DNA of 64,000 bases, taken from Desulfuromonadales bacterium. Its GTDB lineage: Bacteria; Desulfobacterota; Desulfuromonadia; Desulfuromonadales; JACZKF01. The position numbers were made by a program, and so were the translations under genes. The stretch lies in contig JARFUG010000003.1 of assembly GCA_029289095.1 (NCBI GenBank), forward strand, positions 25,479-89,478, in the 5' to 3' direction. The first letter of the stretch is position 1. Each line of letters begins with the position of its first letter. Positions 2,104-12,802 of this stretch are shown here, in pieces. The notes beneath the pieces are model-generated. The model was not told the DNA's origin, searched no databases, and was given only the letters and a program-made list of their open reading frames with translations.

Positions 2104-3303
2104 ATGAGTCTTCTCCAATCACCCTTCAACGCTAAAGGTAGGACAATGTCTCTTTCAACTCTCTGGGCCTGGTGCAAAAGACACCTTCTACTGGTAACGT
2201 TTCTCTCCATCGGCCTCATTTTTGTCTTCGCGGTCATCAACGTTCAGATTCTGCACATGACCTCAGAGCCTGAGTTCTGCGCCATGTGCCACCCCAACCA
2301 GGGGTACGGCCCGCTGGCCGAAGTCGATTCCTGGGCGCACTCGACCCATGCCGCCGCAGGCGTCTCTTGCCTGGACTGCCATGGCCGTCCCGGTCTGGCC
2401 GGCTACATGAGAGCCAAGATTGGCGGGCTCTACGATGTCTATATGCAGTTCACCCTTTCGGCTGAAGAGAAACTTGCCATTCTGTCCAATCCGTCGCCCG
2501 ACCTCGTTCCGGAAGACCACTGTCTCTACTGTCATTCCGATGAGCAGAACCTGGCGACCCGGCAGGCCACCCGCTTCATCGACCTCGTCAACATGCGCAT
2601 GCTCGACAGCGTGCAGAACCCCGAGTTCCGGGAGCGCAAAGGGATTCCTGATATTCTGGCCGGCCCCACCCGGGAGAACTCGCGCTTCGATCACACATTC
2701 CATATGGACACTTTCGAACTTTCGTGCAACGACTGTCACTTCGGTGTCGTGCACAACCCCCAGAGCAAAACCGACCTCATGAACATGTGCATCGCCTGTC
2801 ATGATGCATACGAAGGCTCGTCTGCTCCGCTTCTGAACGATTGCACCTCGTGCCATTCGGTCCAGAACTCGATGTACCTGGGCCAGGGCGCCCGCGGGGT
2901 TCCCGAGGAAGAGGGACTCAAGTCGATGTTCGGCATAAGCTGCGACATGTGTCACTCTTCGGTGTTCAAGGGCGTCTACCGTCCTTCGGCCGGCACCTGC
3001 ACCGATTGCCACGACTCGGGTTACAACGAAATTCTCGAGATGTGGCAGCAGGACACCCGAGAGCAGATCGCCAAACTTGACCGCCTTCGTCTTACCGTCG
3101 AAGACGCCCTGCGTGATGGTGATGCCCGCAACCGCGACAACACTGCTCGCTGGGAACTCTTCCAGAAGGCCGTCTACAATCTGAAACTGGTGAAGAAAGA
3201 TGGCGCGAAGGGAGCCCACAACGCCGACTACGCTTTGTCCATCCTTTCCTCGGTCGAGAAGGACTTCAACTTCATCCTCAACGACATCAGAATCAACTGG
3301 TAA
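2104..3303 (+). CDS. membrane-anchored octaheme c-type cytochrome (NapC/NirT-like N-terminus)
   Basis: Eight CXXCH motifs (CAMCH, CLDCH, CLYCH, CNDCH, CIACH, CTSCH, CDMCH, CTDCH) and one N-terminal TM helix. The alternative start at 2146 has the better SD. Confidence 0.8.
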   Translation: MSLLQSPFNAKGRTMSLSTLWAWCKRHLLLVTFLSIGLIFVFAVINVQILHMTSEPEFCAMCHPNQGYGPLAEVDSWAHSTHAAAGVSCLDCHGRPGLAGYMRAKIGGLYDVYMQFTLSAEEKLAILSNPSPDLVPEDHCLYCHSDEQNLATRQATRFIDLVNMRMLDSVQNPEFRERKGIPDILAGPTRENSRFDHTFHMDTFELSCNDCHFGVVHNPQSKTDLMNMCIACHDAYEGSSAPLLNDCTSCHSVQNSMYLGQGARGVPEEEGLKSMFGISCDMCHSSVFKGVYRPSAGTCTDCHDSGYNEILEMWQQDTREQIAKLDRLRLTVEDALRDGDARNRDNTARWELFQKAVYNLKLVKKDGAKGAHNADYALSILSSVEKDFNFILNDIRINW

Positions 3304-3327
3304 CCGGATCGCACAAAAGCCGAAAAA

Positions 3328-3356
3328 GGCGCCCTCTCGAGGGCGCCTTTTGTTTT
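3328..3356. terminator. bidirectional intrinsic terminator between the cytochrome gene and the convergent peptide array
   Basis: ggcgccc-tctcga-gggcgcc hairpin flanked by an A-run (3323-3327) and a T-run (ttttgtttt). Confidence 0.6.
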
Positions 3357-3402
3357 GTGGCAGGAAACTCCGCAACGATGGCTCTTTGGGACCGCAACCG
3401 GC

Positions 3403-3546
3403 TCAGCCGACCCGGGAAGCCAGGAAGGCCAGCGCCGGGTAGGAGATCAGCACTGCCGTGCACACCGAAATGACCCCGGTCACGACCAGCACGCCTGCGA
3501 GATAACCTGCTTTCACTTTTTCACGAATCGCAACGACGTTTCCCAT
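3403..3546 (-). CDS. small hydrophobic peptide, 47 aa, copy 1 of 5: MGNVVAIREKVKAGYLAGVLVVTGVISVCTAVLISYPALAFLASRVG
   Basis: Hand translation of the minus strand. ATG at 3546 is preceded by GGAGGAGATC; stop is at 3405-3403. Paralogous to four other mini-ORFs in the window. Confidence 0.7.
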   Translation of the reverse strand: MGNVVAIREKVKAGYLAGVLVVTGVISVCTAVLISYPALAFLASRVG

Positions 3547-3618
3547 GATCTCCTCCGTTATCTAGTAAAGCCGGATCGCTCCGGATCGCCTTTTGACTTA
3601 GTCTCGTGTCCCGCGCTC

Positions 3619-3762
3619 TCAGCCGACCCGCGAAGCCAGGAAGGCCAGAGCCGGGTAGGAGATCAGCACCGCCGTGAACACCGAAATGACTCCGGTGACG
3701 ACCAGTACGCCTGCGAGATAACCTGCTTTCACCTTTTCACGAATGCTGACGACGTTTTCCAT
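3619..3762 (-). CDS. small hydrophobic peptide, 47 aa, copy 2: MENVVSIREKVKAGYLAGVLVVTGVISVFTAVLISYPALAFLASRVG
   Basis: Hand translation; SD GGAGGAGATC precedes the ATG. The gene lies exactly 216 bp from copy 1. Most nucleotide differences from copy 1 are synonymous. Confidence 0.7.
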   Translation of the reverse strand: MENVVSIREKVKAGYLAGVLVVTGVISVFTAVLISYPALAFLASRVG

Positions 3763-3834
3763 GATCTCCTCCGTTATCTGTAAAGCCGGATCGCTCCGGA
3801 TCGTCTTTTTGACTTTGCCTCGAACCCCGCGCCC

Positions 3835-3981
3835 TCAGCCGACCCTGGAAGCCAGGAACGCCAGCGCCGGGTAGGAGATCAGCACCGCCGTGAACACCGA
3901 AATGACTCCGGTGACGACCAGCAATGCAGCCAGATATCCTGATTTCGCCTTTTGACCGATTTTCCCGATAGTTGTTTCCAT
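3835..3981 (-). CDS. small hydrophobic peptide, 48 aa, copy 3: METTIGKIGQKAKSGYLAALLVVTGVISVFTAVLISYPALAFLASRVG
   Basis: This is the C-terminal part of track ORF 3835..4092. The internal ATG at 3981 is preceded by AAGGAGGAAATC. It is the first gene downstream of the sigma-54 promoter. Confidence 0.7.
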   Translation of the reverse strand: METTIGKIGQKAKSGYLAALLVVTGVISVFTAVLISYPALAFLASRVG

Positions 3982-4074
3982 GATTTCCTCCTTTGACTTG
4001 GCGCCTCCGCGGAAGGCGACTTTCTGATATTTTTTCGGTCGACTCTGGCGACCGTGCTTACTTGCCTTACTAAA

Positions 4075-4092
4075 TAGCAACCGCCGTGCCAA
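4075..4092 (-). promoter_or_regulatory. sigma-54 (-24/-12) promoter of the three-peptide array
   Basis: Minus strand reads TTGGCACGGCGGTTGCTA, matching the TGGCAC-N5-TTGCW consensus with correct spacing. It lies about 95 nt upstream of the copy-3 ATG. Confidence 0.8.
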
Positions 4093-4162
4093 TATGATTT
4101 TTCATGCCAAAACGAATACTTACGGCCTACTCACATCCTGGAGAGGCGATTCCAACTAAAAG

Positions 4163-4489
4163 TGTTCAATTCCCGGCATGAAGAAATTCAAGAAAATAAC
4201 CTGCCCTCTGCGACAATCCTTCTCACACCAGAGATGATGTCGTGCTGTCCGCCCCCGAATATGCACTTATCTGGCGTTGCAATGACCTTTTGACTGAGAT
4301 GTCGGCAGAGGCGATGACGTTGCAGGAGGGAATAAGCCCGTTTGGGATGTGTTCAGAATACGGCATGTGGAAAGTGGGACGCCAGATGGTGTTCACTCTA
4401 CTTGCTTGAAATACTGTCGTTTTCTCTTGTTCAAAATCCGACGTGGTGCGCTTGTTTCTTTTTATGGCAACTGTTGCGCACGTTGCAAT
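4163..4489 (-). promoter_or_regulatory. upstream activating region: three 16-mers of form TGTTCA-N-CCGRCR (TGT-N10-RCR) plus GTTGCA motifs and a GCAACTGTTGCGCACGTTGCAAT element
   Basis: 16-mers at 4163-4178, 4350-4365 and 4428-4443; CGTTGCA at 4275, 4318 and 4481. The same motifs occur at the same distances upstream of the second sigma-54 promoter (10073-10401). Confidence 0.55.
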
Positions 4490-4711
4490 TAATGCACTGG
4501 GACTCTCCTCCCAGCTCAGAGGAAAACCGGACGGTCGTTCCCCTGCCTCGCCCCGATGGCGCTCCTGTAAATTGCCATCCACTCTCCCTTGAATTCCTCA
4601 CTTCGCGGCAGCAATAAACCCCGGGAGAATGCATCCGTTCCGTCGGCGCGTTCTCCCGGGGTTTTGATAAAGCCACACCCGAATCCCCTCAAATGAGGGG
4701 ATTCGACTTTT

Positions 4712-4987
4712 TCAGGATCGGGCTGTAACGCCCGCCTTCCTGCGCGCTCTGACCATGTGAATTCCGTGGCGATTGCGGAAAATGCGCATCACCATAACGC
4801 CCATGATAGAGAGAAAGAAACCGATGCAAAGAACAACATATCCGATGCTCCTCCCATCTCCCAGCCCAGCGACGTCTTTTCCTGAGAGAAGGGCGATCAT
4901 CGCAATGGCGCCGAAGGTCACCACGCCCCCGAGCACGTAAATGCCGAGAGCCGAAATCCCCAAGAACATATCCTTATCTATTTTCAT
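4712..4987 (-). CDS. small membrane protein (two or three predicted TM helices), function unknown
   Basis: 91-aa ORF with SD GGAGA 7 nt upstream. It sits directly downstream of the CbcL-like gene on the same strand. The hairpin gaatcccctc-aaat-gaggggattc (4681-4704) follows it. Confidence 0.55.
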   Translation of the reverse strand: MKIDKDMFLGISALGIYVLGGVVTFGAIAMIALLSGKDVAGLGDGRSIGYVVLCIGFFLSIMGVMVMRIFRNRHGIHMVRARRKAGVTARS

Positions 4988-5045
4988 CGTTGTGTCTCCG
5001 CAGACTAAGGTGAGGGGGGAGCCCCGTGAGGCTCCCCCTTCTGAA

Positions 5046-7028
5046 TCAGCCTTTGACGAAAGCGTAGAGCATCAAAAACGCCAGCGTCACGCCGGTGAAG
5101 AAAGCCAGGAAGCCGAAGCCCTTGAAGAAAAAGTCATAGAGAACCCCGCTCGTTTTCTTGGCTTCGAACTGCTCCAGGATCCCGAGCTCCTCGTAGCGCT
5201 TCCACTGGTCTCCGCGCTCATGGATGAACTCTTCCTTGGAAATCTGGCCGTTGAAGATGACAAAGTCCATCGGGAACTTCTCGGGCCGACCGTGGGTGTT
5301 GAAGAAGTGGACAGTAAAGATGAATCCGGTGGCGAGCAGCGCCTCGTCCGAATGGACGATGGTGGCGACGTTGAACATCCACCCGGGCAGGAAGAGGGCG
5401 AAGAATTCAGGGAACCAAAGGAGCAGACCGGAGCCGCCGATGGCGAACATCCCCCAGAAGACCGCCAGGAAGTCGAACTTCTCCCAGTAGGTCCAGCGCT
5501 CGAAGGTCGGTTTGGGCCCCTTGAAGAAGAACCACTTCACCATGCCGGTGACGTCCTTTACGTCGCGGGTGTTGGGGAGCAGCGAATCTGGACCGAAAAG
5601 ACGCTGCAGCCAGTGGGCCTTTGTCCCGTTGCGATTATAGACGTCCTTGCGGATGAACAGGAAGTCGAAGCTCATGATGAGAGCGCCGAGGAAGTAGTAG
5701 AAGGTCAGGATGGCGCAGCCGCGATGGATGAGACCGGCCAGGTGCACCCCGCCAAAGAAGTTCATCATGTTCACCGCCCAGGCCTGATCGGCGAACTTGA
5801 GCGGAAGCCCGGTCAGCGAAAGGCCGAGGAAGCTGATGATGACGACGAGGTGGAGATAGATGTGGCGTTTCTCAAACCGCAGATATTGCTTCTGAGGATC
5901 GGAGATGGCGTGGGCATGACTCCCTGCGGCTGCGCCTCCGTGCATCCTCTCTCCGGCCGAGACCGTCACGGCGACCGATGCCGACATGCCGTCGGCGACC
6001 GCCTCCGCTTCCTCGGTGTCCGAATCGTGCGCTCCCGAATGGGCATGGGAGCCCATGGCGGCTTGCTTCTCGCGGTTCTCGACGAAGCCGCGGAACATCC
6101 ACAGCAGGGTGTGGACCCAGAAAACGGCAAACGTCACCACCAGCAGAGAGGTCATGCTGATGTAAGTCCAATACAGGATCGGAAACTTGGCGCGGTCGTG
6201 ATGATCGCCGTGGGGGTGAAAGAGCACGAAGAGCGAATTCGCATTGGGATGGCACTGGGCGCAGGTCGCCACGAGATTGTCGGGATTGATGCTCGACATG
6301 GCGTGGTCACGCGGCAGCACGCTGTGGGCGGTGTGGCAGTCGGAGCATCCGGCCGTATCTTCCGGGAAACCGAGGCGGTAACCTTTGCCGTGATAATTGT
6401 CGAGGTACGTCTTGACGGTGAGCGCCGAAAGCCCCGCACGGCTCATCATCTCCTCATCGCCGTGGCAGGTCATGCAGGCGCTGGTGTGGAAAGCCATCTT
6501 CTGCCGATCGTCTCCCAGGGGATTGATCTGATGCAGACCGTGACAGTCGTGACAGGCCGCCGAATCGGGGTTGCCGTCGAGCACAGAGCGTCCGTGAATC
6601 GACTCGAGATATTCGGGGTGGTCGTGGCAGCCGAGGCACGAGTCGACAGCCACTTCCTTTTTACCCCCCCAGGACTTCAGGGCATGAATGTCGTAATGGC
6701 AGTCTTTGCAGCCTATGCCGCTGAGCATATGGATACTGGATCCATGCTCGGCGGTCTGCTCCTTGTGGCAGCGGGTGCAGTTGACCGGCTCGACCCTTAC
6801 GATTCCGTCCATGTGTCCGTCGAGATCGGTGACCTGCGTGTGGCAGCTTGTGCACGAGTTGTGCCCGTGGACGGACATGCCGAAAGCGGATGCGTCAATA
6901 TCTCCCTGGTGGCAGTCCATGCAGCTTTCCGCGGCGGGCGGCAGAGCTGCGGGAGACGGTGATGGTGCAGCCAGAATCCAGCAGAACAGCAAAATCGGGA
7001 TCAGTCGATAGAACCTCATTGGCTTCAT
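5046..7028 (-). CDS. CbcL-like inner-membrane cytochrome: periplasmic nine-heme c domain fused to a HydC/FdnI-type b-cytochrome membrane domain
   Basis: Signal peptide, then nine CXXCH motifs in aa 36-260, then a polytopic membrane domain in the C-terminal roughly 370 aa. This architecture matches the published description of Geobacter CbcL. The ATG at 7019 has better SD spacing. Confidence 0.75.
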   Translation of the reverse strand: MKPMRFYRLIPILLFCWILAAPSPSPAALPPAAESCMDCHQGDIDASAFGMSVHGHNSCTSCHTQVTDLDGHMDGIVRVEPVNCTRCHKEQTAEHGSSIHMLSGIGCKDCHYDIHALKSWGGKKEVAVDSCLGCHDHPEYLESIHGRSVLDGNPDSAACHDCHGLHQINPLGDDRQKMAFHTSACMTCHGDEEMMSRAGLSALTVKTYLDNYHGKGYRLGFPEDTAGCSDCHTAHSVLPRDHAMSSINPDNLVATCAQCHPNANSLFVLFHPHGDHHDRAKFPILYWTYISMTSLLVVTFAVFWVHTLLWMFRGFVENREKQAAMGSHAHSGAHDSDTEEAEAVADGMSASVAVTVSAGERMHGGAAAGSHAHAISDPQKQYLRFEKRHIYLHLVVIISFLGLSLTGLPLKFADQAWAVNMMNFFGGVHLAGLIHRGCAILTFYYFLGALIMSFDFLFIRKDVYNRNGTKAHWLQRLFGPDSLLPNTRDVKDVTGMVKWFFFKGPKPTFERWTYWEKFDFLAVFWGMFAIGGSGLLLWFPEFFALFLPGWMFNVATIVHSDEALLATGFIFTVHFFNTHGRPEKFPMDFVIFNGQISKEEFIHERGDQWKRYEELGILEQFEAKKTSGVLYDFFFKGFGFLAFFTGVTLAFLMLYAFVKG

Positions 7029-7060
7029 CCTCCGGTAAGAGTTGATAAAATCGATCCGCC

Positions 7061-7726
7061 TCAGCTTCGCAACAAAATATCGAGTGCCTTCTTCTTTTCG
7101 GGGTTATTGAACCGGAACACCATCTCCTTCAAATAGAGGGGAAACTCATCTCGAAAACTCCCCCGGTAACGGCGCAGATGCCTGCGGGCGAACTCCCAGA
7201 ACTCCGCAGCGACGCGCAGTTCCCCTTCCGAACCGTGAGGGAGATGTTTCTGCAGAACTCGACTGAGAAAATTCTCCTTTGCTCCATATTGAGCGCCTAG
7301 CACCAGAGTCGAGCAGCACGCATGTGGAACGCCTGAGCCCCCCCTCTCGGGAAAGGCGACCCACACCGTTCGATCATTGACGCCGATCCCGCACAGGAGA
7401 TTCATCGGCTCCGACATCGGACAACCTTCACTTTGCACCTCCCTCAGATGCGTTGCGTTTTGGAGCCCATCATTTTCCAGGGCCATTTTGACTCTGAATT
7501 CCCTATAGATGCGCTGAACCGTCTTGCGGTTGATACCGGCGAGATCCGCTGCTCTGTATGCGGAACCGAGATCCCAGAATAGTTGGGCGACGGCTTCTCT
7601 GGTGGCTTCGGACAGCCTTCCCTGCCTCGGATGGGGTGTGAACTTCTGTCTGCACTTGCGACACTGGCGGCGGCCGTCCGCCAGCAGATAAGAATCTGCA
7701 TCACAGGCCGGGCATCGATCCATCAT
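7061..7726 (-). CDS. IS1595-family transposase-like protein (zinc ribbon + HTH + shortened DDE region), probably degenerate or domesticated
   Basis: N-terminal CPACDADSYLLADGRRQCRKCRQKF zinc ribbon and a C-terminal YLKEMVFRFNN motif typical of ISXO2/IS1595 transposases. At 221 aa it is short, and I found no flanking inverted repeats. Confidence 0.5.
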   Translation of the reverse strand: MMDRCPACDADSYLLADGRRQCRKCRQKFTPHPRQGRLSEATREAVAQLFWDLGSAYRAADLAGINRKTVQRIYREFRVKMALENDGLQNATHLREVQSEGCPMSEPMNLLCGIGVNDRTVWVAFPERGGSGVPHACCSTLVLGAQYGAKENFLSRVLQKHLPHGSEGELRVAAEFWEFARRHLRRYRGSFRDEFPLYLKEMVFRFNNPEKKKALDILLRS

Positions 7727-8011
7727 GTGGCGCCATCCTCCCGTTGGTCCTATTTAATGGCCTGATCGAAAATTCCACACAAAAAAAGGCCAAAGTTTTT
7801 TCCCTTTGTGCACTTTGACCGCCGGGGATTTCTCAGCCGCTAAATTATGCCGCTCCGTCTCGAGGGCAGAACCGGGGACAGGACATTAGATTACTTTTAT
7901 TTAACCCTGTCAACCTTTTCTCCTGCATAGAAAAACTCTCCTTTCCGTCTCAGTTCAGATGCCGGGCCAATCCCGGTCATCAGGGAAATATTCCGGAGGA
8001 TTGATCACTCC

Positions 8012-9406
8012 TCAGCACAGTTCGTGCCGCTTCATCCAACGCCACAAGGTTGTACGGTCTACACCGAGAATTCCCGCCACCTCAGTACGGTTTCCTCCGT
8101 GCCGATGGAGCAGTTCGTTGAGGTCCTGGGCAGAAACCGTTTTTCGCCTCGACCGTGAAAGGACGGGAGTTGGAACGCTCTTTGGCGACAACGTGGTGGG
8201 CAGATGCTCGATGTCAATTTCAGCGCCGCGACATAGAATGACCGTCTGCTCGATGATATTCAGCAGCTCCCGAACGTTTCCCGGGTATTCGTAATCGAGA
8301 AGGATCTGGAGCGCCTGAGCGGAGAGACCCCTGATATTTTTACCGTAGGCGCGGTTCAACCGATCGAGAAAGACCTCGATGAGCAGGGGGATGTCTTCCG
8401 GCCTCTGACGCAGGGGGGGGATCTGAAGAGCGACTACATTGATCCTGAAAAAAAGATCACGGCGGAAGGTTCCCGCATTCACCTTGGCCCTAAGGTCACA
8501 GTTGGTCGCAGCGACAAAGCGGACATTGGCCTTTTGCACCCTTTCTGCGCCGAGGGGCTGAAATTCCTGGTGCTCAATCACCCGCATCAGCTTGACTTGA
8601 AGGGATAATGGAAGCTCACCGACTTCGTCGAGGAAGAGGGTTCCCCCTTCGGCGAGTTCGATGCGTCCCTGGCGATCGGTCCGATTACCGTAACCTCCCT
8701 TGCGCGAGCCGAAAAATTCGACTTCGAGCAGATGCTCCGGGAGCTCTCCGCAATTCACGACGACCATCGGCCCGGCACTTCGCGAACTGAGCTCGTGAAT
8801 CGCCTTGACGATGAGCTCCTTGCCGGTGCCGCTCTCGCCGGAGACCAGAACCGTGGCATCGCTGCGAGCAACATCTGGCAGAGCGTCGAAGAGCCGATGC
8901 ATGGCGGGATTGCGGCTGACGAGATTTCGGAAGGTGTACTTCTCGGCGACCCGCACGGAGGCGGAGCACAGTTCGGAGCGATCACGGAACGCCTCGACGC
9001 CGCCGATGGGATGTCCTTGCAGGTCGCGCAGGACGGAAGCGCTCACCGAAACCGGTACTTTGCGGTTCTCCTTGTTGCGGATTTCGAACTCGCGGTTAAC
9101 GACCCCGATGTTTGTTTTTCTGGCTTCTCGCACTGGGCAGCTCTCTGAGCAGATATTGGAGCGGAAAATTTCATAACACGGCTTTCCGACCACCTCCGCC
9201 CTGGTAAATCCGGTGATCTCTTCGGCAGCGCGGTTGAACGACGTGATGCGCATGCGGTCATCGACGGTGAAAACGCCGTCTGCTACGCAGTTGAGAATGG
9301 CGCCGGTGAGAACGCTGGAGTTGCCGAACAGGTGGACAGCCGGGGCGCTCCTGCGTGAGATCTCCAAATTAGCTGAACTCTGGTACCTGCCTCGCTCGCT
9401 GCTCAT
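8012..9406 (-). CDS. PAS-domain sigma-54-type enhancer-binding protein (AAA+ domain + C-terminal Fis-type HTH) with a non-canonical GAFTGA loop
   Basis: Walker A GESGTGKE, GGTLFLDEVGEL, and the GNVRELLN motif are present. The C-terminal HTH reads RTEVAGILGVDRTTLWRWMKR. The PAS domain carries CYEIFRSNICSESC. The L1 loop reads KGGYGNR instead of KGAFTGA. Confidence 0.85.
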   Translation of the reverse strand: MSSERGRYQSSANLEISRRSAPAVHLFGNSSVLTGAILNCVADGVFTVDDRMRITSFNRAAEEITGFTRAEVVGKPCYEIFRSNICSESCPVREARKTNIGVVNREFEIRNKENRKVPVSVSASVLRDLQGHPIGGVEAFRDRSELCSASVRVAEKYTFRNLVSRNPAMHRLFDALPDVARSDATVLVSGESGTGKELIVKAIHELSSRSAGPMVVVNCGELPEHLLEVEFFGSRKGGYGNRTDRQGRIELAEGGTLFLDEVGELPLSLQVKLMRVIEHQEFQPLGAERVQKANVRFVAATNCDLRAKVNAGTFRRDLFFRINVVALQIPPLRQRPEDIPLLIEVFLDRLNRAYGKNIRGLSAQALQILLDYEYPGNVRELLNIIEQTVILCRGAEIDIEHLPTTLSPKSVPTPVLSRSRRKTVSAQDLNELLHRHGGNRTEVAGILGVDRTTLWRWMKRHELC

Positions 9407-9518
9407 CGGACACCTCTCGTCGGGGACGGACGCTAATGCTCCCCTAGGACACCCTCAACCCGGCACTCTGCACTTTCGCATCGGGGGATTTTTCGACTCC
9501 GATCTTCCTGGGACTGGC

Positions 9519-9665
9519 TCAGCCGACCTTGGCTGCGAAGAAAGCCAGGGCGGGGTAGGAGATCAGCACCGCCGTAACCCCGGACATGACGCCGGCCAGA
9601 ACCAGCACTGCGACCAGGAAACCTGCCTTCATTTTTTCGCGGAAGAAATTGCCGATGGTTTCCAT
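9519..9665 (-). CDS. small hydrophobic peptide, 48 aa, copy 4: METIGNFFREKMKAGFLVAVLVLAGVMSGVTAVLISYPALAFFAAKVG
   Basis: Hand translation; SD GGAGGAGAAT precedes the ATG at 9665. It lies 113 nt upstream of the bEBP gene on the same strand. Confidence 0.7.
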   Translation of the reverse strand: METIGNFFREKMKAGFLVAVLVLAGVMSGVTAVLISYPALAFFAAKVG

Positions 9666-9743
9666 ATTCTCCTCCACCTTCTCTTGCAGTACAGCACGAC
9701 CAATCCACTGATCCAGCCCGCCAGCAACCTTTCTCGTCAGCCC

Positions 9744-9890
9744 TCAGCCGACCCTGGAAGCCAGAAAAGCCAGCGCGGGGTAGGAAATCAGAACAGCCGT
9801 AACCACGGACATGACGCCGGTGACGACCAGCAATGCGACGAGATAGCCCGATTTCGCTTTTTGTCCAATTTTCTCGATGGTTGTTTCCAT
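9744..9890 (-). CDS. small hydrophobic peptide, 48 aa, copy 5: METTIEKIGQKAKSGYLVALLVVTGVMSVVTAVLISYPALAFLASRVG
   Basis: Hand translation; SD AAGGAGGAAAGTC precedes the ATG at 9890. It is the first gene after the second sigma-54 promoter. Confidence 0.7.
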   Translation of the reverse strand: METTIEKIGQKAKSGYLVALLVVTGVMSVVTAVLISYPALAFLASRVG

Positions 9891-9985
9891 GACTTTCCTC
9901 CTTTGACTTGGCGCCTCCGCGCGGGAGGCGTCTTCTTATAATCTTTCGGCCCTCTCAAGAGACCGTGCTTGCTTGCCTAACTTAA

Positions 9986-10003
9986 TAGCAACCGGCGTGC
10001 CAA
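9986..10003 (-). promoter_or_regulatory. sigma-54 (-24/-12) promoter of the two-peptide array (and possibly the downstream bEBP gene)
   Basis: Minus strand reads TTGGCACGCCGGTTGCTA. The downstream leader (aggcaag.aagcacggtc) is also shared with the 4075 promoter. Confidence 0.8.
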
Positions 10004-10072
10004 ATAAATAGTCACGCGCAAACAGCCACTTAGGTGGCTTGTCCGTCCCATGGAGTCGATTCCGGCGAAAAG

Positions 10073-10401
10073 TGTTCAATTCCCGACGGAAAAAAAAGAA
10101 ATCGAACGGCCGGACCTGCGGCAACCTTCCGCCCCGCAGCAGAGGTAAGGACGAACTGTCCGGCCGCGAACGCCCGTTGGTCGTGGCATGCATTGTTTTT
10201 CCCTGCGTGGGTGAAGAGGCGATTGACGTTGCACGGAGTGGATGCGTCCGCCTGAAATGTGTTCAGAATCCGGCAGGGCAAAATGGAGACGATCAACCAG
10301 AAAGATTACTATCTGATTGATTATTGGTTCTTTTCCCTTGTTCAATATCCGACGCATCGCGTTCTGTTTCCCTTCAGGGCAACTGTTGCGAGCGTTGCAA
10401 T
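10073..10401 (-). promoter_or_regulatory. upstream activating region paralogous to 4163-4489
   Basis: 16-mers at 10073-10088, 10260-10275 and 10339-10354; CGTTGCA at 10227 and 10393; GGCAACTGTTGCGAGCGTTGCAAT at 10378-10401. Distances to the -12 element match locus A within 1-2 bp. Confidence 0.55.
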
Positions 10402-10658
10402 CGAGTTACCAGACCTCAGGCTGTTGCACCTCGTCAGGGCATTCTGCAACAGACCAGATATCTGTCGCTGCCGATTCTCTTTGAAATTGCAGCAGTGAAT
10501 TCCACCTACGTCTTCTGTATCCTGATTCCGACTATTCGAGGCGTACACAAAAAGTGAAAAAATTTTTCCTTTTTTCCGGCTACTCCCTTTGGTATCATTA
10601 ATTTCTGTAACTCACTTAAAGCTGGGGCAATTTCACCCCCGTACGCAGGAGAGTTTCA

Positions 10659-11117
10659 ATGGCGGTTTCCAGCAGCGACCCCATCTTTCCCATCAGCGTG
10701 GCTGCAAAACTCCTCGGAGTTCATCCCCGGACGATCCGCATCTACGAAGACGAAGGCCTGATCAAACCTTCACGTCGAGGCCAGAAAAGATACTTTTCCC
10801 AGGACGACATCCAGTGGATTCAATGCATCAGATATCTCATCCATGAAGAGGGAGTCAGCATTCCCGGCATCAAGAAGCTCCTCAAGCTCAGCCCATGCTG
10901 GGAGATCAAGGTCTGTCCGCCAGAGATTCGCGAAAATTGTTCCGCTTATGTCGACAGAAGCGGGTCGTCACAAAAACCGTGCTGGGAAGTCGCGAATCGG
11001 GCCTGCGCCAAAGACTTCGATCAGTGCGCAACTTGCGATGTTTTCGTGCAGGCGATGAAGGAGAGTCAGTCGTTGCAGGAACGGAGAGAAAAAGAGCCGA
11101 AGATTGGCGCAGACTGA
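10659..11117 (+). CDS. MerR-family transcriptional regulator with C-terminal Cys-rich two-CW-type domain
   Basis: N-terminal MerR HTH (ISVAAKLLGVHPRTIRIYEDEGLIKPSRR). The C-terminus carries PCWEIKVC..C..PCWEVANRAC..CATC, i.e. 8 Cys and two CW dyads. Confidence 0.8.
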   Translation: MAVSSSDPIFPISVAAKLLGVHPRTIRIYEDEGLIKPSRRGQKRYFSQDDIQWIQCIRYLIHEEGVSIPGIKKLLKLSPCWEIKVCPPEIRENCSAYVDRSGSSQKPCWEVANRACAKDFDQCATCDVFVQAMKESQSLQERREKEPKIGAD

Positions 11118-11338
11118 AACTTCCGCTTTTCCTGAAAGGTTTCCTCCGCCGCCCTGGGAACTGCCCGGCCGGCCTCTTCTCAGCAGAGCCCGCCTTAAAT
11201 ATCCCCGGAGAATTAACGGGATTGAGCTTCCCTGGTGAAAACGCTTTTCTTATCTAGGTTTGATGTTGTATTTTCTGCGACTTCCGGTGCAACACTGCGG
11301 CCGGTTCCGTTGCACATTTTCAGCATGGAGGTACTCAA

Positions 11339-12802
11339 GTGAAGGAAGTCGCCAATATTATCAATGCATTCTTCAGAGGAATCACTCACAGCAAGGTCTC
11401 TCTGATCGGGGCGATGGTCGTCACAGTCGTCTTCCCCTTTCTCGTCGGCGCGATCATCTATGACATCTATTTTCACATCGAGAACACCTATTTCGCCGGC
11501 TTCATCTACATGCTTCTCGGCCCTGTGTTTCTCGGAGGACTTCTTCTTGTCTTTCTCGGCCTGTTCTTTTTCAAAGGCAAGGAGGAGGTCAGGCTTTTCA
11601 CCCTCGAATATCTCCAGGACTATTTCACCGATCCGACGAAGTTCTCCAGGCTCCGTCGGATCTTGTTCTTCACAGTCTTTCTCACTTGCGTCAACCTATT
11701 CATTTTCGGCGTCCTCGCCTACAGGGGATACCATTACATGGAGTCGACCGGATTTTGCGGCACTTTCTGCCATACGGTGATGAATCCCGAATACACCGCA
11801 TATCAGAATTCTCCGCACTCCAGGGTGACCTGTGTCGAATGCCACATCGGAGGAGGCGCCGAATGGTTCGTCAAGTCGAAGATCTCCGGAGCCCGCCAGC
11901 TTCTCGCCGTGGCCTTCGACACGCACCCGCGCCCCATAGAGACTCCCGTCCATGGTCTGCGTCCCGCCCGGGACACGTGTCAGCAGTGCCACCGTCCGGA
12001 GAAATTCCATGGAAACCGGCTCGTCATCAAGGAGAGATTTCTTCCGGATGAGCACAACACCAAAACCTTTACCGCCCTGCTGATGAAGATCGGTTCGGCA
12101 GGCGACCACACCACGGGATCTCATGGGATTCACTGGCATGTGGCGCCGGAAAACGAAATCACCTACCAGCACGCAGACTACGGCCGCCAAATTATCCCCA
12201 TCGTGACGATGACCGGAGCCAGCGGCGGAGAGCGTATCTTTCTGAGTTCTGACGCCGACGAAGTCATGGCCGAAGCTGCCGCACGCGGAGGCGGCGTTCG
12301 GGTGATGGACTGCATCGACTGCCACAACCGCCCCTCCCACATTTTCCTGTCGCCGGACCAGGCGATCGACCGCAAGATGCTGGAGGGGGAGATCCCCAAA
12401 GAACTTCCCTTCATCAAGCGCCAAGCCCTGGCGGCGGCAACCCAGCTCTACACCTCGAGTCAGCAGGCCCGCACCGCCATCGCCACGCAATTGCACGACT
12501 GGTACCAGACCAACTACCCGGACCTGGTCAAAAAAGGCTTGGTTGAAAAGGCGATCCGCGGGGTTCAGGCCGCCTATGCTGAAAACGTCTTCCCCGAGAT
12601 GAACATTCAGTGGAACACCTACGTCGACCACATCGCCCACACCCCTGATTTCGATCCGATGATCGGCTGCATCCGCTGCCACAACGATGAGCATGAAACC
12701 GTCACGGGGGAAGTCATTTCCATGGACTGCGATTTGTGCCACACGGTATTGGTCGAAAATGTCAAGGAGATGAACATTCCTGAAATGCTTCGTGGCAGGT
12801 AG
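11339..12802 (+). CDS. membrane-anchored multiheme c-type cytochrome, NapC/NirT-related (ImcH-like architecture)
   Basis: GTG start 8 nt after GGAGG. Three N-terminal TM helices. Five CXXCH motifs (CVECH, CQQCH, CIDCH, CIRCH, CDLCH) plus one CX3CH (CGTFCH). Confidence 0.8.
   Translation: MKEVANIINAFFRGITHSKVSLIGAMVVTVVFPFLVGAIIYDIYFHIENTYFAGFIYMLLGPVFLGGLLLVFLGLFFFKGKEEVRLFTLEYLQDYFTDPTKFSRLRRILFFTVFLTCVNLFIFGVLAYRGYHYMESTGFCGTFCHTVMNPEYTAYQNSPHSRVTCVECHIGGGAEWFVKSKISGARQLLAVAFDTHPRPIETPVHGLRPARDTCQQCHRPEKFHGNRLVIKERFLPDEHNTKTFTALLMKIGSAGDHTTGSHGIHWHVAPENEITYQHADYGRQIIPIVTMTGASGGERIFLSSDADEVMAEAAARGGGVRVMDCIDCHNRPSHIFLSPDQAIDRKMLEGEIPKELPFIKRQALAAATQLYTSSQQARTAIATQLHDWYQTNYPDLVKKGLVEKAIRGVQAAYAENVFPEMNIQWNTYVDHIAHTPDFDPMIGCIRCHNDEHETVTGEVISMDCDLCHTVLVENVKEMNIPEMLRGR

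Follow-up and report, generated by a model that had tools for sequence, protein, structure and literature searches.

A predicted composite sigma-54 enhancer with two motif classes upstream of small membrane peptide genes in Desulfuromonadales

Enhancers with more than one activator site are familiar at sigma-54 promoters: NorR has three GT-N7-AC sites at norV, and NtrC has two strong and three weak sites at glnAp2, all of them dyad-symmetric and clustered within ~70-100 bp. TyrR is an enhancer-binding-protein homologue without a functional GAFTGA loop. The same holds for VpsR (PMC6158489) and Caulobacter NtrC (bioRxiv 10.1101/2023.06.06.543975). In Desulfovibrio vulgaris Hildenborough (DvH), the PAS domain of the activator OrpR holds a redox-sensitive [4Fe-4S] cluster, and three cysteines (C52, C61 and C65, accompanied by D/E54) are required for redox sensing (PMC8359166). 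IHF is required at the orp promoters of this organism, with a single palindrome at -131 or -88 (PMC3897727). We analyzed a stretch of 64,000 nt (the window) from a Desulfuromonadales bacterium (GCA_029289095.1, contig JARFUG010000003.1, positions 25,479-89,478 of the forward strand), which matches a Desulfuromonadales metagenome-assembled genome (MAG). Positions 10073-10401 of the window and their paralogue at 4163-4491 probably form a composite enhancer with two motif classes, upstream of a sigma-54 promoter that drives tandem genes for small membrane peptides.

The two loci, A (4076-4491) and B (9987-10401), have their genes on the minus strand. A pattern search for the -24/-12 elements of sigma-54 promoters located promoter A (TGGCACGGCGGTTGCT, 4091..4076, minus strand) and promoter B (TGGCACGCCGGTTGCT, 10002..9987, minus strand), which are the only two exact matches to TGGCAC-N5-TTGCW in the window. 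Both are followed by a leader of ~100 nt and then by tandem genes of 47-52-aa single-pass membrane peptides. Operon A (3403..3981, minus) has three such genes of 47-48 aa (3981..3835, 3762..3619 and 3546..3403), and operon B has two, one for a single-pass membrane peptide of 48 aa (9744..9890, minus) and one of 52 aa (9519..9677, minus). No Pfam or NCBIfam model matches this family, which has 17 members among the 5.8 billion sequences searched.

To follow the region beyond the window, we compared five independent promoter lineages, i.e., the two window loci (winA and winB), L002, L003/6 (L003-L006) and L007/12 (L007-L012). L002 is a locus in another Desulfuromonadales MAG and the only one returned by a peptide-profile scan of the genome collection. 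In all five lineages the promoter is invariant as TGGCAC-N5-TTGCTAT, and three 16-mers in the same order and orientation and a GCAAC cluster are kept upstream of it, while the spacers have diverged and their lengths change. Judged by these sequence comparisons, the stretch is a genuine control region that evolution has conserved ahead of a sigma-54 promoter serving small membrane peptides.

The three 16-mers of each locus are asymmetric and all point the same way, with centers at ~-105, -292 and -370. In locus B these are site 1 (CGTCGGGAATTGAACA on the promoter strand, 10073..10088, center ~-105), site 2 (TGCCGGATTCTGAACA, 10260..10275, center ~-292) and site 3 (CGTCGGATATTGAACA, 10339..10354, center ~-370), and in locus A they are site 1 at 4163..4178, site 2 at 4350..4365 (one mismatch, TGCCGTATTCTGAACA) and site 3 at 4428..4443, all on the minus strand. 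A search with TGTTCANNNNCCGRCR at ≤1 mismatch gave 6 matches in the 64 kb against 1.44 expected, a number reached in 0 of 100 shuffles, and all six are these sites inside the two loci. Over the 15 sites scored (three per promoter lineage) the consensus on the promoter strand is YGYCGGAWWTTGAACA, in which G2, C4, G5 and TGAACA are invariant. TGAACA was also the only hexamer found at least three times in each of the five enhancers (0/300 shuffles).

The original prediction had likened the 16-mers to the NifA-type upstream activating sequence (UAS) TGT-N10-ACA. They share with it a 16-bp span that ends in ACA on the promoter strand and a proximal copy near -105, but none of the 15 sites reads TGT-N10-ACA; their left arms are CGT, TGC, CGC or CGA (YGY), and their core is CG...TGAACA with an invariant CG. 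The linked regulator (8012-9406, see below) was likewise rejected as NifA, as it scores 305 bits against a cut-off of 528.85 for the NifA model TIGR01817 and has an N-terminal PAS domain instead of GAF. The resemblance to NifA sites was therefore not borne out. A scan of metagenomes for CCGGRANTTGAACA-N66-76-TGGCAC returned 112 matches, all but two without a -12 element and none with further 16-mers or peptide genes, and these were dismissed as chance rather than related enhancers. One metagenome contig (L074, 215-309) has GTCCGGAAATTGAACA 75 bp upstream of a very good TGGCACGGCTCTTGCT promoter, before an unrelated secreted-protein gene, which could reflect a related regulon or chance.

The spacing of the sites is fixed within parts of the enhancer and loose between them. 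In every lineage, 70-72 bp separate the end of site 1 from TGGCAC (center of the site -104.5 to -106.5), and sites 2 and 3 are 78-81 bp apart in all lineages, which corresponds to 7.4-7.7 helical turns. The gap between sites 1 and 2 is 178, 187, 187, 188 and 309 bp across the five lineages, and the distal 16-mers of L003 are centered at -415/-496. The layout is thus modular, with a distal module (GCAAC cluster, 30 bp, site 3, ~62 bp, site 2, then TGCAAC) of fixed internal geometry that lies a variable 178-309 bp upstream of the proximal site. All of the motifs first reported for the two loci were found there, and most of their distances (87/86, 274/273, 352/352 and 390/391 bp for A/B) held when counted from the last base of the 16-nt promoter match, with the exception of GACGTTGCA, which is at 240/238 and not at 242/240. 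Equal spacing, as originally claimed, applies to A, B and L002 and is not a constant of the family. The spacing is constant only for the proximal site and inside the distal pair, and the idea of phased sites was not supported; helical phasing between the proximal site and the distal module is not conserved across lineages and was rejected.

Like the NorR and NtrC enhancers, the region repeats one motif several times ahead of a sigma-54 promoter, as used to assemble an activator oligomer; it differs in that the copies are asymmetric, lie in one orientation and are divided between a proximal site and a distal module that is 180-310 bp more remote. The description as an unusually extended enhancer agrees with what is known, since a typical UAS is ~100-150 bp upstream (PMC7057263) and in DvH the nearest site is >300 bp away at only four promoters (PMC4641369).

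The second motif class is built on GCAAC. Cluster B (TTGCAAC-N4-GCAAC-A-GTTGC, 10379..10401, minus) combines direct repeats with inverted ones that overlap them and precedes site 3 by 30-32 bp, and its counterpart in A is at 4467..4489 (minus). The long palindromic block GCAACTGTTGCGNNCGTTGCAAT occurs twice against 0 expected, and the core of cluster B, GCAACAGTTG, is also found upstream of an orp-like operon in L133. A further TTGCAAC element is at 4276..4282 (minus, ~-215) in locus A. By total count in the five enhancers, GTTGCA/TGCAAC is the next hexamer after TGAACA, and 7 of the window's 20 TGCAAC hexamers fall inside the two enhancers, which together measure 864 bp (p = 5e-9). The single motif set for a single activator that was first proposed is at odds with the two classes present.

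Other elements accompany the two classes. The TGCAACGTC element (the GACGTTGCA of the original prediction) is at 10225..10233 (minus) in B and at 4316..4324 (minus, ~-258) in A, and in four lineages it is 27-36 bp downstream of site 2. Between site 1 and promoter B, the best match to the IHF consensus WATCAR-N4-TTR (8/9) is at 10020..10032, ~-56..-44; the best match is at -57..-44 in 4/5 lineages, with scores of 7-9 of 9, each weak alone except that of L007 (9/9). A second sigma-54 promoter within the GGCAACTGTTGCG palindrome was rejected by eye, as B does not keep the GC of its -12 element. A further inverted repeat, GTTGCA-N16-TGCAAC, is at 10423..10450, just outside the interval 10073-10401 and between the enhancer and a divergent MerR-family gene (10659..11117), and L003 has GTTGCAAC-N4-GTTGCA in a comparable position.

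The alignment of A with B shows where the sequence has been held, with motif blocks 80-91% identical and spacers 44-60%, and six stretches of ≥9 identical bp (p = 0.002 by permutation of run lengths). Could the similarity be without function, i.e., a recent duplication decaying uniformly, or islands of a small open reading frame (ORF) or a structured RNA? The two loci are indeed paralogous and only 6 kb apart, and the identity of their spacers is still above random. The islands are, however, kept in three further lineages from other organisms, where the spacers are unalignable or have changed length, and peptide identities of 52-81% for L002, L003 and L007 argue against recent horizontal copies. 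Tblastx between the enhancers gave only short matches in shifting frames (≤33 bits, versus 80-97 bits for a 49-codon peptide gene), and a conserved small ORF in the enhancer was rejected because none emerged from it. RNAalifold found no supported structure on either strand of the distal module (the energy was -5 to -8 kcal/mol for 250 nt and the covariation term was positive), and an Rfam search of 3000-11500 with E up to 1 returned only sub-threshold noise. The same layout in further lineages, together with spacers that diverge and change length, therefore speaks against uniform decay, coding sequence and structured RNA, and we consider an origin without function extremely unlikely. In this respect the original prediction, which saw conserved motifs in diverged spacers and protein-binding sites instead of coding sequence, has held up, and conservation across the duplicates and their relatives is non-uniform.

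A separate question is whether the distal module (sites 2 and 3 with the GCAAC cluster) belongs to the peptide promoter, or serves a neighboring or divergent gene or is independent. Its distance to the proximal site varies (178-309 bp), inverted repeats of the GCAAC type precede another gene as well (11288-11314), and in B and L003 the operon has a divergent MerR-family gene as its neighbor, all of which would fit a role elsewhere. Against this, the module accompanies the peptide promoter in 5/5 lineages although the upstream neighbors differ: in A a co-oriented membrane-protein gene and a terminator, in B and L003 the MerR gene, in L002 a small divergent gene whose product was read as YtxH-like, and in L007 a co-oriented ANKH-like gene. 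The module also carries the same 16-mer as the proximal site, and no sigma-54 promoter was found inside it and no sigma-70 promoter inside the enhancers. A role for the module elsewhere is thus very improbable.

The repeat at 11288-11314 (TGCAAC-N15-GTTGCA) is 25-50 bp upstream of the GTG start of a NapC/NirT-type cytochrome gene (11339..12802, plus strand). The same regulator family may have another operator here, one that would serve a promoter of a type other than sigma-54.

Downstream of the peptide genes of operon B are a PAS-AAA+-HTH_8 regulator gene (9406..8012), a gene for a Zn-ribbon/HTH protein (7726..7061) and that of a 660-aa multihaem cytochrome. The regulator (8012..9406, minus) is OrpR-like, and its PAS domain has C77-x8-C86-x3-C90 and E79, all invariant in the orthologues. 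It is probably a redox sensor, because its cysteines have the same spacing as those of the DvH OrpR that holds the [4Fe-4S] cluster. No terminator-like structure was detected in 9406-9519 (minus), between the last peptide gene and the start codon of the regulator, and since no terminator separates them the regulator gene may be co-transcribed from promoter B, by which it is probably driven; as a possible member of operon B it may create a feedback loop.

The likeness to the DvH system (PMC8359166, PMC3897727) extends over the PAS-AAA+-HTH_8 regulator with its Cys-x8-Cys-x3-Cys triad and an acidic residue at +2, the sigma-54 promoter preceded by a site near -90 to -130, with a possible site of the IHF type in between, and the position of the regulator gene beside its target. 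In addition, the paralogous Desulfuromonadales clusters L132-L135 keep an orange-protein-like Nitro_FeMo-Co gene, followed by homologous small peptides. DvH promoters have one 17-bp palindrome, GGGCGYRTTTTGCGCCC, whereas here three asymmetric 16-mers and GCAAC elements are spread over 320-450 bp. The DvH box had 0 matches at ≤3 mismatches in the window, with only its center (CG-NR-TTTTG) resembling the 16-mer, and was rejected as the motif used here. The window also has no orp gene, and its regulator has lost GAFTGA.

An alignment with ZraR, NifA and FlrA puts FGSRKGGY-GN of the window protein (residues ~233-243) in the place of the canonical FGHEKGAFTGA stretch, and the corresponding loops are GGY-GN in the window, GPD-GD in L002 and GPYSGG in the L003 type. 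Within the list of the 120 closest homologues, a degenerate loop is confined to the three orthologues linked to peptide operons, while the other 117 (43-68% identical) have GAYTGA, GAFTGA, GAFTDA or a close variant. The Walker A/B, arginine-finger and sensor motifs of the window protein are intact. As the loop is the most variable stretch in three orthologues that are otherwise 69-73% identical, the sigma-54 contact looks to be under relaxed constraint. VpsR, Caulobacter NtrC and TyrR also have an AAA+ core with intact nucleotide-binding motifs and a lost sigma-54 contact loop; these act at sigma-70 promoters, whereas the protein described here is tied to near-consensus sigma-54 promoters.

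The regulator had been proposed to act as a classical NifA-like activator that uses all of the motifs as its UAS, with at least three phased sites. In support, its gene lies beside the peptide operon in each of three lineages (window, L002 and L003/L004), genes of enhancer-binding proteins usually adjoin their targets (PMC4641369, PMC8359166), its ATPase motifs are intact as described above, the window and L003 proteins keep a Tyr in the loop, and the center of the 16-mer resembles that of the OrpR box. The loop is nevertheless degenerate, and different in each of the three orthologues while the other 117 listed homologues keep it, and loop-less enhancer-binding proteins act without sigma-54, as does VpsR (PMC6158489). 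This proposal also meets two motif classes instead of one, no TGT-N10-ACA site, a NifA score below the cut-off and a phasing that is not conserved. We regard a classical activator acting through all of the motifs as unlikely. Because its GAFTGA loop is degenerate, the linked regulator may more likely be a modulator (anti-activator, co-activator or architectural partner) than an activator.

PexR of Myxococcus xanthus, a dual repressor-activator enhancer-binding protein, is a further comparison (PMC12754779). It resembles the modulator proposed here as a sensor-domain regulator with repeats upstream of sigma-54 promoters and a second, non-activating role at the same locus, and differs in that it is reported to activate sigma-54-dependent expression, to have a GAF metal-binding sensor domain and to use dyad-symmetric repeats.

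The clusters of canonical paralogues (P0022, P0052 and P0098, of which P0098 is labeled in its source as a protein of Desulfuromonas sp. KJ2020) bear on the assignment of the motif classes. These clusters have the order regulator, ~117-aa protein, Nitro_FeMo-Co (orange-protein-like) gene, tandem 47-53-aa peptides, Zn-ribbon/HTH protein and ~650-aa multihaem cytochrome. One class of their peptides is homologous to the window peptides (tblastn E ~1e-5), and their Zn-ribbon proteins are 33-44% identical to that of the window, while tblastn found neither an ORP (orange protein) gene nor the 117-aa partner in the window. Because these peptides and the Zn-ribbon protein are shared and the ORP gene is missing, the window cluster appears to be a derived form whose peptide genes have gained a promoter of their own. 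The canonical peptide genes form an undescribed set of their own, with tandem genes of 47-53 aa in at least two classes (...WPALAHLGSK... and ...WSFSCLGGA...) at L132 2496-5202, L133 6185-8647 and L134 5697-9266; they follow ORP-like genes and adjoin NrfD, 4Fe-4S and multihaem-cytochrome genes.

The intergenic regions beside the canonical regulators have dense GTTGCA/TGCAAC arrays and none of the 16-mers. GTTGCA-N1-2-TGCAAC palindromes are found upstream of the adjacent orp-like operons, and in L133 and L134 they are ~105-135 bp upstream of TGGCAC-N5-TTGGAA-type promoters (no promoter could be read in L132). The TTGCAACAGTTG of one canonical intergenic region has the same core as the GCAACAGTTGC of the window, and the recognition helix DRTTLWRWMK is identical in canonical and degenerate-loop proteins. 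In view of the arrays beside the canonical paralogues, the identical recognition helix and the TGCAAC enrichment in the window, the GCAAC class is most likely the operator of this OrpR-like regulator family. The 16-mers would then be a second motif class, specific to stand-alone peptide promoters.

The assignment could also be the other way round, with the degenerate regulator on the 16-mers, which would be interleaved between the sites of the activator and the promoter, and a canonical OrpR-like paralogue encoded elsewhere on the GCAAC elements, activating by looping from ~-410. The 16-mers do co-occur with the degenerate-loop clade, canonical loci have none, the first HTH helix differs in this clade, and the canonical paralogues seem to use the GCAAC arrays as their activating sites. 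What makes this exchange of roles unlikely is that the recognition helix is identical to that of the paralogues and that no canonical paralogue is encoded in the window. In addition, the only palindromic GCAAC element is at least 400 bp upstream, and the usual activator position (-105) is taken by a 16-mer.

For the composite enhancer that we favor, the following course of events can be envisaged. Sigma-54 RNA polymerase would form a closed complex at the promoter, and an AAA+ activator at the position-locked proximal 16-mer (~-105) would contact it through a DNA loop across an IHF-type bend near -50. With two more 16-mers and the GCAAC operators, the distal module would help the oligomer to assemble and recruit a second regulator, and its loosely set distance fits with looping. 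Redox input would come from the linked OrpR-like protein, which, without GAFTGA, would tune rather than open the promoter. Candidates for the 16-mer binder are another enhancer-binding protein or the linked regulator itself through a second binding mode. The more specific version, in which the loop-less Fe-S PAS paralogue is a non-activating, enhancer-bound modulator (an anti-activator, scaffold or feedback element) whose GCAAC operators are interleaved with the 16-mers of a separate activator, is offered tentatively, as a possibility. On the question of which protein binds what, the main rivals are the exchanged assignment and the single activator for all motifs.

Several points weigh against this reading. 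The only enhancer-binding protein encoded in the 64-kb window is the degenerate one, and an alternative activator may be encoded outside it. The co-occurrence of the 16-mers with three GAFTGA-degenerate regulators could equally mean that these regulators bind the 16-mers, and the first HTH helix of the window regulator reads TEVAGI, versus T[KR]VA[RK]E in the canonical paralogues. The L003 loop, GPYSGG, keeps Tyr-Ser, and such a loop might retain some activity, as we presume from PspF mutagenesis. The 16-mer center (CG-GA-TTTTG) resembles the center of the DvH OrpR box (GGGCG-YR-TTTTG-CGCCC), which gives the alternative assignment of the motifs some likelihood, and the one given here is, like the enhancer function, predicted from sequence. 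The IHF match is weak when each lineage is taken singly, and all of the sequences are metagenome assemblies from uncultured organisms.

A second candidate DNA binder is the Zn-ribbon and HTH protein of 221 aa downstream of the regulator gene (7061..7726, minus). Matches below threshold link it to the zinc ribbon of the IS1595 transposase and the C-terminal end of DDE_Tnp_IS1595, and it may be a domesticated, transposase-derived DNA binder. A homologue follows the regulator gene in L002 and others are part of the canonical orp-like clusters; as the latter have no 16-mers, the protein was rejected as a specific 16-mer binder.

Some features of the peptide operons and their flanks were also recorded. 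A GC-rich hairpin of 7-8 bp is in the leader of the peptide mRNA, 6-8 nt 5' of the ribosome-binding site (3998-4020 in A, 9908-9932 in B); its stem sequences differ among A, B, L002 and L003 with the structure kept, and it is absent before the first L007 gene. Between the convergent operon A and a cytochrome gene (2104..3303) is a bidirectional terminator-like hairpin (3324-3351). GC-rich inverted repeats at 4620-4665 (seen by eye) and 4680-4705 (from a terminator scan) are just upstream of enhancer A, after the gene 4987..4712, and mark the upstream boundary of the conserved region in A.

More distant homologues of the peptides (P0012, P0014, P0015 and the phage-borne P0013) have TATAAT-like sequences upstream by eye and neither a sigma-54 promoter nor 16-mers. 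They were rejected as extra footprint lineages for this reason, which makes the architecture a property of this clade alone. A phage-like contig (L013, 5001-5132; also L014, 585-716) carries the gene of a 43-aa peptide with the same ISYPALAFLASK tail, where the neighbors include PhoH, RNA ligase and GIY-YIG genes.

The locus is set apart from known sigma-54 enhancers by its asymmetric sites in one orientation, the split into proximal and distal parts, its two motif classes and a linked regulator with a degenerate GAFTGA loop. If our reading holds, it would offer a natural and compact test case for an enhancer divided into a position-locked proximal site and a distance-tolerant distal module, for the combination of two motif classes in one enhancer, and for the fate of an enhancer-binding protein that has lost GAFTGA while tied to a sigma-54 promoter. 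A non-activating role of the linked regulator, if true, would mean a sigma-54 enhancer that integrates two AAA+-type inputs. The tandem 47-53-aa membrane peptides are an undescribed family tied to the orp-like, multihaem-cytochrome gene clusters of Desulfuromonadales, and this link suggests that they may have a redox-controlled role in the cell envelope or in electron transfer.

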